DNA of 51,902 bases from Treponema sp. (GTDB lineage Bacteria; Spirochaetota; Spirochaetia; Treponematales; Breznakiellaceae). Below the pieces are notes generated by a model, which was not told where the DNA came from, made no database searches, and was given only the letters and a program-made list of their open reading frames with translations. Location: positions 1 through 51,902 of the forward strand of contig JAITUY010000203.1 in assembly GCA_031286095.1 (NCBI GenBank), written 5' to 3'. The first letter of the stretch is position 1. Each line of letters opens with the position of its first letter. Below, in pieces: positions 4,730 through 12,052 of the stretch. The translations under genes were made by a program, and so were the position numbers.

Positions 4730-6394
4730 ATGGAAAAAAAAGTTGAAGATGCGGGGAATGTTGGTTCGTCTTTACCGGCGGACTCTTTTGTACGACAAGA
4801 TTCGGCTCTGTCCCTGTCGGCAGGGTCTCTCGTACGGCAAGGTTCTGCTCTGTCCCTGCTTACGCTGTTTTCACGTATTCTCGGTCTTTTAAGGGAAATG
4901 ACCAAGGCGAGTTTTCTTGGGACAAGCGCGCTTTCGGACGCCTTTTCTGTCGCTTTTTTACTGCCAAATCTGTTCCGACGCCTTTTTGCAGAAGGCTCCA
5001 TTTCGGTTGCTTTTATTCCTACTTTTAAAGAATACTTGCTGGGAAATGACAGGGAAAAAACTAGGGAATTCCTTTCCTGTATTTTCACTTTTTTGACGTT
5101 TTTTGTAACTTTAATGGTTGTTATTGGAATTCTTATCTCCCCGTTGCTTATAAGTCTTTTGAAAATGAAAGAGTTTGATGAAACTGTCCTTCTTTCAAGA
5201 ATTATGTTTCCTTTTCTTGGGTTTATGTCGCTGGCGGCGCTGTTTCAGGGGGTGCTGAATAGTCTGCATATTTTTACCCCGTCGGGGCTTGCGCCAATTC
5301 TGCTGAACATTGTTACGATTCTTTGCACTTACGCTCTGAGTCCTTTTACCCAAAACCCCGCCCGGGCAATGGCGACCGGCGTTCTTTTGGGAGGGTTTTT
5401 GAGCGCGGCGATTCAGTTTCCTTTTGTGATAAAACGGGGACAGAGCTTCGTTTTTACAGGTTTGAAAAGAGCTATAAACAACCCTGGTACGCGTAAAGTT
5501 CTTATGCTTATAAGCCCAACGATAGTCGGAATGGCGGCTTATCAGCTTAATGATCTTGTTTCCACAGTTCTGGCCGGGCGTGCTGGCGAGGGTATTGTCT
5601 CTAGTCTTCAGTATTCGCTTAGGCTTCAGGAGTTGATACTTGGCGTTTTTGCGGTTTCTATAGGGACAGTGCTACTCCCAAATCTTGCCGAGTACGCTAA
5701 AACATCGCAATGGGATGTTTTTAACAAACGGCTCGTATCCGCGATGAACATTATCGCTCTGATTACTATTCCTATTACTGTTTTTTCGCTTTTTGAGGGA
5801 CAGAGCTTGATACGTCTTCTCTTTCAAAACCGTAGTTTCGACGAAACCTCGGTTAGCTTGACATTGTCGGCCTTCACGTTCCATATGCCTGGTTTGTTTT
5901 TTATCGCGCTTAACCGTATTCTAGCCCCCGCTTTTTACGCACAGAGCGATACCAAGTCCCCCACCTTGGCAGGTATTATTTCTTTTGCGGCTAATATTTG
6001 TCTTGCGGCTATACTTGCCGGGCCGTTGCGAGGCGCAGGGATTGCTTTGGCTCTGTCCCTCGCCAGCGCTGTTAATACCGTTTTGCTTCTTGCTTTCCTT
6101 AAAAAGAACCCCAATGTTGCCATTGGTCATGCCTTCGGTTCCGCTATCGTCTATATTGTAAAATTATTGATTATTTCGGGATTGGCGATAGTTCCCGTCT
6201 ATTTTTTATCTCCTTTGTTAAAGGCTTTTTTTGCAGGTAATGGGCGGTATATCTCTTATGGCGTACCGCTAATTATTAACTCGTTTGTTTATATTCTGCT
6301 TGGAGTTGCGATGCTTGCCGTTGCAAAGGACAGGCATATTCTTGCTTTAGTTGCTATGTTGAAAAGAAGGGATAGAAATGGAGACAGAGCTTAA
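4730..6394 (+). CDS. murJ: Lipid II flippase MurJ (MviN) with duplicated N-terminal segment
   Basis: SRILGLLRE, AF..PNLFRRLFAEG and AFYAQSDTKSP motifs; many transmembrane segments. Confidence 0.93.
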   Translation: MEKKVEDAGNVGSSLPADSFVRQDSALSLSAGSLVRQGSALSLLTLFSRILGLLREMTKASFLGTSALSDAFSVAFLLPNLFRRLFAEGSISVAFIPTFKEYLLGNDREKTREFLSCIFTFLTFFVTLMVVIGILISPLLISLLKMKEFDETVLLSRIMFPFLGFMSLAALFQGVLNSLHIFTPSGLAPILLNIVTILCTYALSPFTQNPARAMATGVLLGGFLSAAIQFPFVIKRGQSFVFTGLKRAINNPGTRKVLMLISPTIVGMAAYQLNDLVSTVLAGRAGEGIVSSLQYSLRLQELILGVFAVSIGTVLLPNLAEYAKTSQWDVFNKRLVSAMNIIALITIPITVFSLFEGQSLIRLLFQNRSFDETSVSLTLSAFTFHMPGLFFIALNRILAPAFYAQSDTKSPTLAGIISFAANICLAAILAGPLRGAGIALALSLASAVNTVLLLAFLKKNPNVAIGHAFGSAIVYIVKLLIISGLAIVPVYFLSPLLKAFFAGNGRYISYGVPLIINSFVYILLGVAMLAVAKDRHILALVAMLKRRDRNGDRA

Positions 6395-7718
6395 AAAAAA
6401 ACGCAACTTTCCCGCTGTAGTTCTTGCTGGACGTCCCAATGTGGGAAAATCGACGCTCTTTAACCGCCTTCTGCGTAAACGCAGGGCGATTACAGACCCA
6501 ACGCCTGGTGTTACACGCGATCCTGTATCAGCCGAGTGTTTTATCGCGGGAAAACCTCTCATGTTGATTGATACAGGTGGTTTCAAATTGGCTGATTGCG
6601 AAGGCATAGACAAACTAGTGGTAAAAAAAACCCTTGAAACAATAAAAAAAGCAAACCTTATTGTTTTACTGCTCGATGTTGGGGATATAACAAGTGAGGA
6701 CGAAGAATTTATAGACATTTTACGTCCATACAGGGAAAAACTTGTTGTGGCAGTCAACAAAACCGAAGGCGGCAGAGGGCAAGCCGATGCGTGGAATGTT
6801 TTAAAGTTTGGATTTGACAAGGTTTTTATGATTTCAGCTGAACATGGCGACAATATCGGCGAGCTTGAACAGGAGATTATCAGACGGCTGGATTTTTCTG
6901 GGGTTGAAGACGCTCCTGAGGGACAGAGCTCAAATATACGCATCGCCTTGATGGGAAAACCAAACACAGGTAAATCAACGCTTTCCAACCGTCTTACATC
7001 GTCAAACTCGTCTATTGTAAGCGAAATACCAGGCACTACCAGAGACACGGTTGAGGGGAATTTTCGTTGGAAAGGGCGGGATTTTATGATTCTGGACACT
7101 GCCGGCATACGGCGTAAATCGAAAGTTACGGAAAATATCGAATACTATTCGGTTAACCGCGCCATTAAAGCGATTGATTCGGCGGATATTGTCGTTTTGA
7201 TGATCGATGCGGCGGAGGGACTTACTGATCAGGATAAAAAGATAGCGGCTCTAGCCCATGACAAGGGCAGAGGGATCATAATGACTCTTAACAAGTGGGA
7301 CACCATGCCTCAGAACAAAAATACGTTTAAGGACATATCAAGCAGAATACATTTCCTCTTTGGTCAGATGGAATACGCGCCCATTGTCCCTGTCAGCGCG
7401 AAGGACGGAAACGGCGTTGATAAACTTTTGAGTACCGTGATAAAAATGTATGATCAGCTTAGTCAGAATATAACAACTGCCCGTCTTAATCAGGCGCTCG
7501 AACAGTGGCTAACAGAACATCCTCCGCCAATCGGTCCGCATACGCGCTTTAAACTTAAATACATTGTACAAAAATCAGCCAACCCCGTGCATTTTATCAT
7601 CTTTGCATCCCGTCCGCATGCAGTTAGTGATGCGTATATTTCATATTTGCGTAACAAGATACGCAAGGACTTGGGTTTTTCTCTTGTTCCTGTTCTTGTC
7701 GAGGTAAAGGGGTCTTAG
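6378..7718 (+). CDS. der: Ribosome biogenesis GTPase Der (EngA)
   Basis: Two G domains (GRPNVGKSTLFN...DTGG...NKTE; GKPNTGKSTL...DTAG...NKWD) plus a KH-like C-terminal domain. Confidence 0.96.
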   Translation: METELKKKRNFPAVVLAGRPNVGKSTLFNRLLRKRRAITDPTPGVTRDPVSAECFIAGKPLMLIDTGGFKLADCEGIDKLVVKKTLETIKKANLIVLLLDVGDITSEDEEFIDILRPYREKLVVAVNKTEGGRGQADAWNVLKFGFDKVFMISAEHGDNIGELEQEIIRRLDFSGVEDAPEGQSSNIRIALMGKPNTGKSTLSNRLTSSNSSIVSEIPGTTRDTVEGNFRWKGRDFMILDTAGIRRKSKVTENIEYYSVNRAIKAIDSADIVVLMIDAAEGLTDQDKKIAALAHDKGRGIIMTLNKWDTMPQNKNTFKDISSRIHFLFGQMEYAPIVPVSAKDGNGVDKLLSTVIKMYDQLSQNITTARLNQALEQWLTEHPPPIGPHTRFKLKYIVQKSANPVHFIIFASRPHAVSDAYISYLRNKIRKDLGFSLVPVLVEVKGS

Positions 7719-8224
7719 TAACGTATGTGTTCTGGACAATACCGCAAAATCAGATCATCCGGCGGATCGGTAACGGTTTTTATCCCGTGATGATGATGCC
7801 ACAATCCGCCGAATCTCCACTTCCATGAGAAGTCAACCAATTGCGCATTAACCGGATTGTCATCAATATAGATAAACACCCGCAGAAAATCTACTATTCC
7901 TTCGATAATTCGGGAATAGAACCGTTCACCCCATACATGTCCCTTTAAATTATGCCTTCGATTCCATGTCATAGCGAATACGCTGAGAATCCACTGCATA
8001 ATCCGGGATAGGGATTCGTTTTTTCCAGGTTTAATCAACAGGTGAATATGGTTGTTCATAATGCAGAAGTTTCTGAGCTGAAAACGGTATCGCTTTTTTG
8101 CACGCTCAATGACATTTAGCATGAGCGTTTTCTCTTCTTCCAGCAATAGAGCCATTTCACCTCGGTTAATCCTGGCGGAAACATGATACTCAGCTCCCTC
8201 AAGGAGCTTCCTACAAACACGCAT
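7715..8224 (-). CDS. HUH Y1 tyrosine transposase, RAYT/IS200-like, stand-alone
   Basis: YHVSARINRG N-terminus, CIMNNHIHLL (HUH), GHVWGERFYS and catalytic YIDDNPVNAQLV, the layout of REP-associated tyrosine transposases; no tnpB nearby. Confidence 0.9.
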   Translation of the reverse strand: MRVCRKLLEGAEYHVSARINRGEMALLLEEEKTLMLNVIERAKKRYRFQLRNFCIMNNHIHLLIKPGKNESLSRIMQWILSVFAMTWNRRHNLKGHVWGERFYSRIIEGIVDFLRVFIYIDDNPVNAQLVDFSWKWRFGGLWHHHHGIKTVTDPPDDLILRYCPEHIRY

Positions 8225-8327
8225 AATAATATATATGTACGTATATGAATGGCGCTTTACTTTAAGGGGATTTTTTTGACATTTTTTTAGATTTTAGCTC
8301 TGTCCCTGTTATTTTGCTTATATTTTC

Positions 8328-8373
8328 GCTCTGTCCCCACAAAAACTCAATTTAAACCCACTGGGGACAGAGC
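8328..8373. repeat. REP-like hairpin upstream of the Y1 transposase
   Basis: GCTCTGTCCCCA (8328-8339) pairs perfectly with TGGGGACAGAGC (8362-8373) around a 22-nt loop; an extra direct copy of the left arm lies at 8297-8306. Confidence 0.88.
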
Positions 8374-8424: not shown

Positions 8425-9291
8425 ATGAAAGCTTATCTTGATATTGTGCATAAAGTTCTTGAAAATGGGTTTCATAAGGCAAACCGCACCGGTATTGATG
8501 CCTTGACTATCGCCGGAGCAATGTTTGAGCATGATATGGTGGATGGTTTTCCGCTTTTAACTACAAAAAAAGTTCCCTTGCGCCTTGTCGCTTCTGAACT
8601 TGAGTTTTTTATCCGCGGTATAACCGATAAAGAATGGCTAAAGGAGCAAAATAACCACATTTGGGATGAATGGTGCAGTCCGTCTGTAGTTCCATACGCT
8701 ACCGATGAGCAAACCAAGGCTAAAATGACTGCCGAGCGTGAATTGGGTCCTATTTACGGCTGGCAGTGGCGCAATTTTGGCGCGAAATATATGTCTTTTG
8801 ATAATCCTCCTAAGGGACAGAGCTTAGATCAACTTAAGCAGATGGTTCAAACCTTAAAAACCGATCCTGATAACAGGCGCATGATTGTAAGCGCATGGAA
8901 TCCAATCGATCTTCCGCGAATGGCTCTGCCCCCATGCCATTACGCTTTTCAGGTTACGGTAATAGGTGGCAAGTTGAATCTGCTCTGGAATCAACGTTCG
9001 GTCGACGTTGCGCTAGGACTGCCGTTTAATATTGCAAGTTACGGCTTGCTTCTGCACTTGCTTGCGAAAGAGGCAGGTCTTAGCGAAGGCAGGCTTATCG
9101 GGTTTTTGGGTGATGTTCATATTTATGTGAACCATGTCGAGGCTATCCAAGGACAATGCGGTCGCTCTCCAAAGATGTTGTCACGCGTTAAAACACCAAA
9201 CTTTTCTTCCATTTTTGACTGGCATTACGGCGATACGGTTATAGAAGGCTACGATCCCTACCCTGCGATAAAATTCGAGATAGCGGTTTAG
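8425..9291 (+). CDS. thyA: Thymidylate synthase
   Basis: RTG, FPLLTTKK, IWDEW, LGPIYGWQWR, MALPPCH, QRSVD..LGLPFNIASY and DVHIY motifs. Confidence 0.97.
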   Translation: MKAYLDIVHKVLENGFHKANRTGIDALTIAGAMFEHDMVDGFPLLTTKKVPLRLVASELEFFIRGITDKEWLKEQNNHIWDEWCSPSVVPYATDEQTKAKMTAERELGPIYGWQWRNFGAKYMSFDNPPKGQSLDQLKQMVQTLKTDPDNRRMIVSAWNPIDLPRMALPPCHYAFQVTVIGGKLNLLWNQRSVDVALGLPFNIASYGLLLHLLAKEAGLSEGRLIGFLGDVHIYVNHVEAIQGQCGRSPKMLSRVKTPNFSSIFDWHYGDTVIEGYDPYPAIKFEIAV

Positions 9292-9293
9292 TT

Positions 9294-9941
9294 ATGCGGG
9301 AGATTATCATAATCGCCGCGATGTCGGAAAACAGGGTTATTGGTAAAAACAATGTTATGCCGTGGTCCATAAGAGAAGAGATGGCGCATTTTACAAAATT
9401 GACAAAAGGCTGGCCCTGTATCATGGGCAGGAAAACATGGGAATCTCTGAAAAAAAAGCCTTTGCCGGGACGGCTGAATGTCGTTATTTCGGGAAAATTG
9501 ATGAAAGAGAGGCAGTTTCACCCACGTATGAATAGCTCTGTCCCCGAAGGAAAAGCTCCGTCCTCAAGTGGCAACTCTGTTTCCAAGCGACAACTTTGCT
9601 CCCAAGCGATAACTATGTCCCCGGTCAACGGCTCTGTCCCCGTAGGAGAAGCTCTGTCCCCCGAGCAACTTTCTCCAAACCTGAAAATATTCCCCTCCCT
9701 GTCCACCGCCATTGAACACTGCGCTGGTTACGAGAAAGTTTTTATATGTGGCGGAGAATCAATTTACAGACAGGCTCTTTCGCTGGCGGACAAGATTGAG
9801 TTGTCCGTAATTCACCGTCAATACGACGGCGATACATATTTCCCGGAAATTGACAACGCTTGCTGGAAAATAAGCAACACGAAAGATTTTGACGATTTTT
9901 CATTTATCACTTACACTAGAATTAAACAGGAGCAGTTATGA
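9294..9941 (+). CDS. folA: Dihydrofolate reductase with an internal repeat-derived insertion of about 50 aa
   Basis: ENRVIGKNNVMPW, IMGRKTWES, PLPGRLNVVIS, FICGGESIY and GDTYFP motifs; directly follows thyA; 215 aa versus about 160 aa for typical DHFR. Confidence 0.93.
   Translation: MREIIIIAAMSENRVIGKNNVMPWSIREEMAHFTKLTKGWPCIMGRKTWESLKKKPLPGRLNVVISGKLMKERQFHPRMNSSVPEGKAPSSSGNSVSKRQLCSQAITMSPVNGSVPVGEALSPEQLSPNLKIFPSLSTAIEHCAGYEKVFICGGESIYRQALSLADKIELSVIHRQYDGDTYFPEIDNACWKISNTKDFDDFSFITYTRIKQEQL
9535..9677 (+). repeat. Degenerate 19-20 bp tandem array inside folA
   Basis: Unit cores start at 9535 GCTCTGTCCC, 9555 GCTCCGTCCT, 9574 ACTCTGTTTC, 9593 ACTTTGCTCC, 9612 ACTATGTCCC, 9631 GCTCTGTCCC and 9651 GCTCTGTCCC. 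Confidence 0.85.
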
Positions 9942-10852
9942 AAGGACCAATTTTGGCAGTGCTTGCCGCAGGAATGGGAAGCCGTTACGGCGGCCTTAAA
10001 CAGATGGACATTATAGGAAAGAACGGTGAAGTACTGCTTGATTATTCGGTATACGACGCGGTTAAATCCGGTTTTGAAAAAGTTGTTTTTATAATCCGCA
10101 GGGACATAGAAAAAGATTTTAGCGGAATTGTACTTGCGCGGATGGGTTCTAAAGTAAAATATGAATTGGCTTTTCAGGAGGCGGACAGTTTGATACCTCC
10201 CGATATTTTTCGCGCCGCTCAAGAGGCGGGAAGAACCAAGCCATGGGGAACAGGTCACGCCCTGCTTTGCGCCACGGATAAAATTGACGCGCCATTCACG
10301 GTGATAAACGCCGATGATTTCTACGGAAGAGAGGCCTTTGCTGTTATGTGCAGGCATCTCAATTCTTCCGGCGAGGCCGCTATAGTGCCGTACCGCCTTG
10401 AAAAAACGCTTAGTCACCAGGGAACGGTTGCGCGCGGCGTCTGCAGTGTTGCGGACGGCTACCTTTCCGGTGTTGAGGAACTTACCGCTATTGAAAAAAA
10501 AGACGGGCGGATCATAAATACCGCCCCCGGCGGCGTAATCCGCGAACTTCTTCCAGAAACGCCCGTGTCGATGAATTTCTGGGGTTTTCAGCCGGAAATA
10601 CTTCCTGAATTTAAAAAATATTTTGATGATTATCTAAAGGAATTTTCTGCGGACGTGAAAGGGCAGATAAAAAGCGAATGTTTTATCCCCAAAGCGGCGG
10701 ATTATTTTATAAACCGTGGGATAATTAAGATAAAAGCGTTATCCGCCAATTCTGACTGGTTTGGTGTAACTTACAAAGAAGACAAGGAGGCGGCAATTAA
10801 AAAAATTGGAGAGCTAACCTCCGAGGGCGTATATCCGCCTAAACTTTGGTAA
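9938..10852 (+). CDS. Sugar-phosphate nucleotidyltransferase family protein
   Basis: LAAGMGSRYGGLKQ signature, RTKPWGTGHA, INADDFYG, SMNFWGF and WFGVTY. Confidence 0.85.
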   Translation: MKGPILAVLAAGMGSRYGGLKQMDIIGKNGEVLLDYSVYDAVKSGFEKVVFIIRRDIEKDFSGIVLARMGSKVKYELAFQEADSLIPPDIFRAAQEAGRTKPWGTGHALLCATDKIDAPFTVINADDFYGREAFAVMCRHLNSSGEAAIVPYRLEKTLSHQGTVARGVCSVADGYLSGVEELTAIEKKDGRIINTAPGGVIRELLPETPVSMNFWGFQPEILPEFKKYFDDYLKEFSADVKGQIKSECFIPKAADYFINRGIIKIKALSANSDWFGVTYKEDKEAAIKKIGELTSEGVYPPKLW

Positions 10853-11092: not shown

Positions 11093-12052
11093 TTACCAAC
11101 TAAACCTTAATGCCATTCTTGCCCCTAAATATAGTTTATTGTTATCATTTATTGAATATTTAACTATATTGAAAAAAAGAAGCCCTATATCGCTACCACT
11201 GTTATATTCCCAAGTTAATGTTGGACTGAGCAAAATACTTAAATTTGGAGTAATATTATATCCAAAATAAGGTATTATACTTAAATAATTAATAAAATCA
11301 TCTATTATCTTATTATGTGAGACAATTTCTGGGTTAAAATAAAATTTATTACCTAAATCAAAAATAGCCCCGAAACCGCCGCCAAAAACAACTTGCTGTT
11401 TTATGCCGTTTATAAATGGGTTATATCCAACAATAAATGATGTATAAAACATTTTAACTCCAATTTTAAACGATATGTTAAAAGGAACTATTTCAGAAAC
11501 ACCAAATTCTATTGCTTTATATCCACCATTGCGTACTATTGATAAAAAACCAATGGGAATACCATTTTCAATGACATCAGTATAATTTATAAACCCTAAT
11601 TGCAAACCATTTAATGATTTCGGTGTTGTATTTATAAAGCCAAATTGGATTCCGCATATATCTCCGATTGAGGTATTTACAAATCCTAACTGCAAACCAT
11701 TTAATGATTTCGGTGTTGTATTTATAAAGCCAAATTGGACTCCGCGTATATCTCCGATTGAGGTATTTACAAATCCCATTTGAAGACCTGTTAGGCTTCC
11801 TCCTATTGTATTAACAAAACCAAACTGTACAGTAGAAAAATCTTTTTGGTTCCAATTCACAAATCCAATTTGCGGTAAATTATGACTACCGCCAGCAATA
11901 TTTATAAATCCAATTAATGGAAATGTAAATTGTTCATTAACTATATTAAAGAATAGCGTATATACGCTAGTCTCTTTATTATCCTCTGCAAAATTCAATG
12001 TTGTTATTGTAAAAGACAATAAAATTGTTATAATAAGCTTTTTAATTTTCAC
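11093..12052 (-). CDS. AT-rich exported protein with 15-aa G(L/V)Q(L/F)GF(V/I)N repeats and a probable C-terminal beta-barrel
   Basis: GTG start after AGAAGGA; signal peptide ending NFA; tandem GxQxGFxN repeats like spirochaetal LA_2272-type surface repeats; C-terminus ALRFSW ends in an aromatic residue. Confidence 0.7.
   Translation of the reverse strand: MKIKKLIITILLSFTITTLNFAEDNKETSVYTLFFNIVNEQFTFPLIGFINIAGGSHNLPQIGFVNWNQKDFSTVQFGFVNTIGGSLTGLQMGFVNTSIGDIRGVQFGFINTTPKSLNGLQLGFVNTSIGDICGIQFGFINTTPKSLNGLQLGFINYTDVIENGIPIGFLSIVRNGGYKAIEFGVSEIVPFNISFKIGVKMFYTSFIVGYNPFINGIKQQVVFGGGFGAIFDLGNKFYFNPEIVSHNKIIDDFINYLSIIPYFGYNITPNLSILLSPTLTWEYNSGSDIGLLFFNIVKYSINDNNKLYLGARMALRFSW
11601..11776. repeat. 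90-bp tandem duplication within the repeat-protein gene
   Basis: 11601-11686 versus 11691-11776 differ at two positions (11650/11740 and 11656/11746). Confidence 0.9.

Follow-up and report, generated by a model that had tools for sequence, protein, structure and literature searches.

A tandem array in the folA gene of a Treponema species and a motif clustered around a neighboring RAYT-like transposase gene

The closest described counterparts of the locus analyzed here are systems in which a short DNA repeat is found with a RAYT-type transposase, or in which a short word recurs within coding sequence. The locus lies in a window (the whole stretch of DNA that was analyzed) of 51,902 nucleotides from a Treponema sp. 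genome. The nearest of the described systems are the TIRtrons and their TIRYT transposases. As far as the main text of each paper describes them, the motif consensus is GGGGWSAS (Di Nocera, De Gregorio and Rocco 2013, PMC3733652), and a C-terminal HTH or DnaA_C-like extension is a feature of TIRYT subclass 2.1 (Quentin et al. 2018, PMC6006769). On the same accounts, TIRtrons resemble the window in having a RAYT-like Y1 transposase, no GTAG REP, and motif copies arranged as dimers and clusters, and the reverse-strand form of the window motif, GGGGACAG, which is read in 6 of the 13 exact window copies and 40 of the 63 copies in the genome, fits the published consensus. They differ in that long terminal inverted repeats are present on both sides, whereas the window has only a 12-bp pair upstream of the transposase gene, the nearest exact copy downstream of it lying 0.8 kb off, inside der. 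They differ also in their HTH or DnaA_C-like tail, whereas the window protein is 169 aa long and has none, as evidenced by a Pfam result that comprises Y1_Tnp only. The window is set further apart from the TIRtrons described in that text by a 12-base linear word found within ∼5–8 kb of the gene, mostly in coding sequence, and by in-frame arrays in housekeeping genes. We do not file the system as a TIRtron/TIRYT because both the two-sided long terminal inverted repeats and the HTH tail are missing.

The REPtrons combine a RAYT/TnpA-REP enzyme with REP/REPIN sequences (PMC5581495, PMC8266576; the E. coli TnpA-REP is PDB 4ER8). As presented in the body of those papers, they share with the window a single-copy HUH/Tyr enzyme under purifying selection, an inverted pair beside the gene, and a cognate repeat that varies from one enzyme clade to another. 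Their repeat, however, is a GTAG-tagged hairpin that is mainly extragenic and genome-wide, whereas the window word is linear, mostly within coding sequence, and local. The DNA uptake sequences of Pasteurellaceae and Neisseria, in the account that the text of Findlay and Redfield (2009, PMC2817400) gives, are likewise ∼10-base words in coding sequence that fall on tolerant residues and yield recurring tripeptides; the window word, too, is held in coding sequence without indels and with its silent sites conserved, as uptake sequences are. Uptake sequences are genome-wide and tied to natural competence, in contrast to the window word, which forms a halo around one gene and builds tandem arrays. 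Finally, the Rickettsia RPE and intragenic REP elements, as treated in the main text of PMC3733652, also place repeat-derived, in-frame inserts in loops of housekeeping proteins, but RPE are palindromic mobile units of fixed length, whereas the inserts described below are variable in number, non-palindromic, and read in all three frames.

A literature search with thin coverage of subscription journals, and with the figures and supplements of the TIRYT and subclass papers outside its range, turned up no account of local motif halos within coding sequence or of DHFR arrays of this kind. What is new here is a variable in-frame array in DHFR together with a concerted switch of the motif. We consider the transposase-centered halo to be the more interesting object, the DHFR insert being one product of it. 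The features of the locus, in the coordinates of the window, are as follows.

4730..6394, + strand: murJ, with five exact motif copies (4805, 4847, 5437, 5797, 6050)
6378..7718, + strand: der (EngA GTPase), with one exact motif copy (6920–6929) in a variable linker
7715..8224, − strand: single-copy gene for a RAYT/TIRYT-like Y1 HUH tyrosine transposase of 169 aa, in which H59-x-H61 and Y119 are invariant
8297..8373, no strand assigned: three motif copies upstream of the RAYT gene, of which 8328–8339 and 8362–8373 form a 12-bp inverted pair
8425..9291, + strand: thyA, with an exact motif copy (8814–8823)
9294..9941, + strand: folA, dihydrofolate reductase (DHFR), 215 aa, the sole DHFR_1 match in an 88%-complete genome
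9498..9671, + strand: low-confidence, likely disordered DHFR loop, residues 69–126, between the RLNVVIS and KIFPSL strands
9535..9660, + strand: seven-unit tandem motif array in folA with a 19–20 bp period, units 1, 6, and 7 exact and units 2–5 decayed

The array in folA and the loop that holds it

The original prediction for this stretch described seven repeat units in folA at spacings of 20, 19, 19, 19, 19, and 20 bp, with the first and the last two units exact and the inner ones decayed. Our analysis agrees on each of these points. The units start at 9535, 9555, 9574, 9593, 9612, 9631, and 9651, and they carry 0, 2, 3, 4, 2, 0, and 0 mismatches to the unit motif GCTCTGTCCC, the fuller form of which is AGCTCTGTCCCY. 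Tandem Repeats Finder catches the inner part of the array (9572–9622, period 19, 2.7 copies). The reading frame is open throughout the gene, the motif is read in all frames, and the peptides that had been quoted for the units are present in the translation.

The protein is predicted to retain an intact two-part DHFR fold with an acidic active-site residue. Its DHFR_1 match (PF00186, E 1.7e-45) is split over two stretches; the AlphaFold model has a normal DHFR core, with pLDDT <50 for residues 69–126, and the top Foldseek matches of that model are DHFRs. Glu29 aligns with the position that we take to be Asp27, the catalytic acid, of the E. coli enzyme. The loop measures 83 aa in the window versus 28–55 aa in 20 same-genus orthologs, a set drawn from 24 genomes of which 22 have a match, with one locus that has no ORF and one loop that could not be parsed left aside. 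The site had been described at the outset as a variable surface loop, and our analysis agrees that it is a tolerant one. DHFR is needed alongside thyA by established pathway logic. The window DHFR is probably needed in this way, because the genome, at 88% completeness, yields no other DHFR_1 match and no thyX.

In surveying these sequences we also noticed that Asn occupies the catalytic-acid position in 10 of 22 DHFR sequences, in genes that look intact beside thyA (folA of loci L003, L009, L012, L013, L016–L020, and L022); the same is seen in L108, L123, L124, and L264. In L009, L016, L019, and L020 the folA loop carries other short repeat words, of CTCTGCG and CACGGAG type, which we presume to be linked to GxxExxY genes. 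The DHFR loop appears to take up local repeats generally.

Two plainer accounts of the insert had been anticipated, and neither holds. An assembly artifact is ruled out by an independent assembly of the probable source run (a termite gut metagenome), one contig of which covers 9108–10009 with 0 differences and a flat depth of 22. A conserved protein domain, shared with DHFRs that lack the motif, is ruled out as well, the insert being absent from 20 of 20 parsed same-genus loops. No indel or unit-number variants are listed at the array among contigs, which drop rare variants. Almost none of the stretch is present in two other sequencing runs, and no RNA datasets containing it are listed.

The array had further been likened to a tiny repeat-spacer array with differing spacers, and here our data point elsewhere. 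Spacers 2–4 are alike at 6–8 of 9 bases between them, and spacers 1 and 6 at 7 of 9; by shuffling, this similarity has p = 0.007 over all pairs and p = 0.0009 over the three best. The spacers are thus diverged duplicates, and the array arose by duplication and not by spacer capture. Inner units 3–5 have a common first-base change, which is present too in the middle unit of the L105 array, so units already decayed were duplicated, and this in turn would favor slippage as the route of expansion. The array shows no fold as single-stranded DNA (z +0.6 and +0.7), and the repeat is not palindromic.

A motif word centered on the transposase gene

What the original prediction overlooked is that the motif is the word of a halo centered on the neighboring RAYT-like transposase gene. 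The motif is not private to folA. The earlier proposal that the repeat is a DNA-level product rather than a selected peptide is borne out. Exact matches to the 10-mer number 13 in the window versus 0.04 in shuffles, and all 13 copies fall between 4805 and 9660 (4.8–9.7 kb), the remaining 46.9 kb of the contig outside the halo holding none. Among the genes, murJ has 5 exact copies, der 1, thyA 1, and folA 3. From the only Y1 transposase gene found in the 88%-complete genome, the copies reach out 2.9 kb in one direction and 1.9 kb in the other, and the 12-bp inverted pair upstream of that gene makes a stem in single-stranded DNA (z −3.7). A pool of 1477 copies from related loci, which are not independent of each other, gives the linear 12-mer AGCTCTGTCCCY as the word, and the flanks of these pooled copies hold no information beyond the 12 bases. 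Examined for helical phasing, the spacing of copies peaks at 19–21 and 30–33 bp overall and, for intergenic pairs alone, in one broad peak near 31 bp; same-orientation spacings <18 bp are scarce (16 of 428 within 120 bp). A synonymous-opportunity test, which is partly circular and carries no weight in our reading, gives 10 of 14 near the RAYT gene versus 32 of 293 elsewhere.

The transposase itself matches PF01797 (E 1.5e-14) and NF047646 (75.8 bits, just below the cut-off of 80), and its profile match to PDB 4ER8, the E. coli TnpA-REP, has an E value of 3e-6. H59, H61, and Y119 are unchanged in 20 of 20 aligned transposases. The gene is under purifying selection, with dN/dS values of 0.05–0.11 in six pairs, the seventh pair being saturated. 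A RAYT match is present in 17 of 40 genomes of the genus, and among the 160 related loci that we fetched, whose titled genome records are nearly all from spirochaetes, groEL adjoins RAYT in 18 and murJ adjoins it in many.

Across the genome the exact motif occurs 63 times in clusters, with 41 copies on three contigs, and motif clusters are found also on contigs without RAYT (C214, C22, and C72). On the first of these, 14 exact copies form a tandem array of 37–39 bp period at the 3′ end of a gene (G000:C214:6129–6631). Four copies lie in one ORF at G000:C22:21004–21607, which by eye we take to be ispE-like, and two lie in an ORF at G000:C72:2376–2644, the G007 ortholog of which (L267) has four; no RAYT is near either. 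An array of ∼19-bp period upstream of groEL (G000:C260:3059–3543) contains 14 exact copies among decayed units. This half-decayed array is likely a relic of the former neighborhood of the RAYT gene, because the groEL found there adjoins RAYT in relatives. Two further candidates, C103:30400–30808 and C109:7880–8006, were rejected as motif arrays, since they are 18-bp hexapeptide-like coding repeats at contig ends whose match to the motif is coincidental.

Halos, loop arrays and a switched word in relatives

The halo recurs in relatives of the window. G046, whose RAYT is 84% identical, has 13 copies in the 10 kb around RAYT, and G007, whose RAYT is 76% identical, has 26 copies in 13 kb, with no copies in the other 36 kb of the same contig or at the thyA-folA locus, which is distant. 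Ninety-two of the 160 loci are at least 8 kb long, and in 82 of the 92 the motif is present within 300 bp upstream of the RAYT gene; under the pattern used, it is absent there in the other ten. Five or more further copies are seen in 53 of these 82 loci and fewer than five in 29. The pooled further copies, from loci that are not independent, number 869 versus ∼48 expected, with 536 in long ORFs. Copy density declines from ∼1 per kb to 0.25 per kb at 9–10 kb, and in distant spirochaetes the halos cover whichever genes flank RAYT. No Y1_Tnp match was found in the genomes G014 (97% complete) and G005 (77%), and copies at the same sites are few or decayed in both, which suggests that copies may decay where RAYT is not found, a reading weakened by the incompleteness of both assemblies. 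The more distant RAYTs of the genus have different clustered words of their own, with 6–17 copies per locus. Loci with other RAYT words (e.g., GGTGTCAATCAC, GGTGACAGTCAC, and GGTATCAATTAC) are L063, L065, L066, L068, L069, L072, and L078.

The folA loop contains 1 unit in G005, 2 in G014 and L124, 3 in L105, 5 in L106 and G046, 6 in L108, 7 in the window, and 12 in L123, and it is longer by ∼50 aa in the window and by ∼75 aa in L123. Every motif-bearing folA examined stays open and in frame. The expectation that the reading frame limits the number of units is thereby borne out in the eight motif-bearing loops other than that of the window, which span 1–12 units. The unit period in these loops is 19–20 bp, except in G046 (25–31 bp) and at one 29-bp step in L123, and the 19–20 bp period recurs in C260 and in the G007 and G046 clusters. 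Arrays of at least three units are found only where RAYT is on the same contig or in G046, the contig of which is motif-rich and the genome of which has this RAYT. The loop of L124 is built from the variant word of that locus. The MurJ proteins of G046 and of L121 have loop arrays like those of folA. In-frame MurJ loop inserts of four to five motif copies are seen at L061:6173–6305 and L121:1509–1626.

Within genes, the copies are conserved at the level of DNA. At fourfold sites, the pairwise identity among 13 murJ orthologs is 0.92 within four copies (8 sites) versus 0.39 outside them (163 sites). Many coding copies lie at gap-free alignment columns, and this includes four of the five murJ copies, at which the motif is common to other RAYT-adjacent orthologs. 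The shared murJ sites are probably inherited, and they are therefore not independent gains. In thyA, the motif copy at 8814–8823 encodes Ser at a position that is Gly in 19 of 19 orthologs lacking a RAYT nearby; among the RAYT-adjacent orthologs, Ser is found in 5 of 7, and the other two have Asn and Gly. In der, SEIP is changed to SSVP in 4 of 14 orthologs, and in thyA, KEQN is changed to RGQS in 1 of 22. These der and thyA copies differ by 5–6 changes affecting conserved residues, and none of the orthologs examined shows an intermediate. A selfish-looking DNA word is thus seen to shape proteins, through a Gly-to-Ser change in thymidylate synthase and the recoding of MurJ and Der.

The concerted switch is seen in L124, where 31 of 36 copies have the one-base variant GCTCTGACCC, three orthologous murJ sites included; at these three sites the switch is silent twice and converts Ser to Thr once. 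At two of the five copies that keep the old word, the change would replace Ser by Thr, and the old word is kept at a murJ site that has Ser in all 17 aligned sequences. L120 contains the variant word only (4 copies), and L121 contains both variants mixed. Among the aligned transposases no residue tracks the motif variant cleanly; Gly at position 100 is common to both switched loci but is found also in two unswitched loci, and the mixed locus has Glu there. The system offers one small protein, a linear word of 12 bases, and a naturally occurring pair of specificities (the window word versus the L124/L120 variant), and binding, cleavage, and spread of the motif are therefore directly testable.

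How the array may have arisen

Our preferred reading, to which we give a probability of roughly 55%, is that the DHFR insert consists of tandem copies of the RAYT halo word, brought about by a cis-acting, RAYT-dependent bias together with slippage and a filter on reading frame. The RAYT-like enzyme would probably bind the 10–12-base word and, by analogy with TnpA-REP, may nick it and transfer strands, acting in cis near its own gene. Inheritance would then be biased toward word-bearing DNA, a drive like that of DNA uptake sequences. Replication slippage would have multiplied the word inside the tolerant DHFR loop, and selection would likely have retained only those array lengths that stay in frame. 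The observations on which this reading is built are the clustering around the gene, the conservation of silent bases, the switch, the decay without RAYT, the in-frame variation, and the duplicated decayed units.

Alternatively, the HUH enzyme may cut single-stranded DNA and rejoin it, pasting the word, or the word with ∼9 flanking bases, nearby in one step, so that the tandem units and the multi-base replacements are direct products. Such writing easily explains the concerted switch, and TnpA-REP proteins cleave and strand-transfer single-stranded DNA, according to the text of PMC8266576. The multi-base, non-synonymous copies in der and thyA would, for want of intermediates, sit better with one-step writing than with our preferred reading. 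In two close pairs, 3 of 10 motif bases differ together with only 1–2 of 48 flanking bases, and the recurrence of the 19–20 bp period in separate places (the folA loops, C260, and the G007 and G046 clusters) also suits it. The cis-acting bias has to contend, in addition, with the motif clusters on RAYT-less contigs and with the presence of both variants in L121. Between close orthologs, however, single-base differences in the motif predominate, accounting for 5 of the 9 closest pairs. In a block-arrival test of 33 closest have/lack pairs, which include a few array sites and give the test low power, the closest-class mismatches number 5, 1, and 3 versus a binomial expectation of 4.3, 2.7, and 1.3. 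We favor the cis-acting bias over direct writing because these mismatch counts fit stepwise divergence. The flanks without information beyond 12 bases, the duplicated decayed units of the window array, and the 25–31 bp period in the G046 folA loop speak against direct writing as well, and we judge it possible but rather doubtful. We put forward with equal caution the idea that this RAYT clade is a local cis writer, which would paste or repair the 12-base word within several kb, rewrite codons of essential genes, grow frame-cycling arrays, and re-edit its neighborhood upon a one-base shift in specificity. If the enzyme does write the word directly, it would represent a new kind of local mutator.

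It is unlikely that the copies constitute an array selected by the host, with a domesticated DNA-binding factor whose sites are kept for a chromosome-organizing or regulatory role and a DHFR run that is a by-product of slippage. The single copy and low dN/dS of the gene, its position beside groEL or murJ, and the rarity of short same-orientation spacings would fit such a role. The halos, however, fall on any RAYT-flanking genes in distant spirochaetes, the copies override conserved residues, the catalytic HUH and Tyr residues are invariant, and only 17 of 40 genomes of the genus have a RAYT match. A variable-number repeat generated by slippage alone in a tolerant loop, independent of the transposase, is largely refuted and very improbable. 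It would account for the variable loop length, for the other short repeats in relatives that lack this RAYT in the vicinity, and for the duplication of decayed units, but the unit is identical to the halo word, arrays with at least three units keep to RAYT-bearing contigs or the motif-rich contig of G046, and the L124 loop uses the L124 variant. A miniature CRISPR-like array recording foreign or local sequence, which the regular spacing and superficially different spacers might suggest, can be dismissed, as the spacers resemble each other, neither a palindrome in the repeat nor a fold of the array is seen, and a search with the 9-base spacers gave 3–56 occurrences in the genome versus 12–22 expected, matches that are meaningless because 9-mers hit the genome at chance level. 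Six flanking proteins were scanned, and none of them is Cas.

The order and orientation of groEL, RAYT, murJ, der, and thyA-folA vary among loci (L104, L105, L106, L108, L109, L114, L116, and L124), and it is only in the window, L104, and L105 that RAYT is flanked by der and thyA; local rearrangement of this gene order by the RAYT enzyme is possible. In L125, L145, L151, and L152 the motif core is found within the coding sequence of RAYT itself, at ∼+295, near the HVWG segment. Elsewhere in the window, a 319-aa ORF on the − strand (11093–12052) carries coding repeats of 45/90 bp, which give a peptide of Q-x-G-x-x-N type and are unrelated to the motif.
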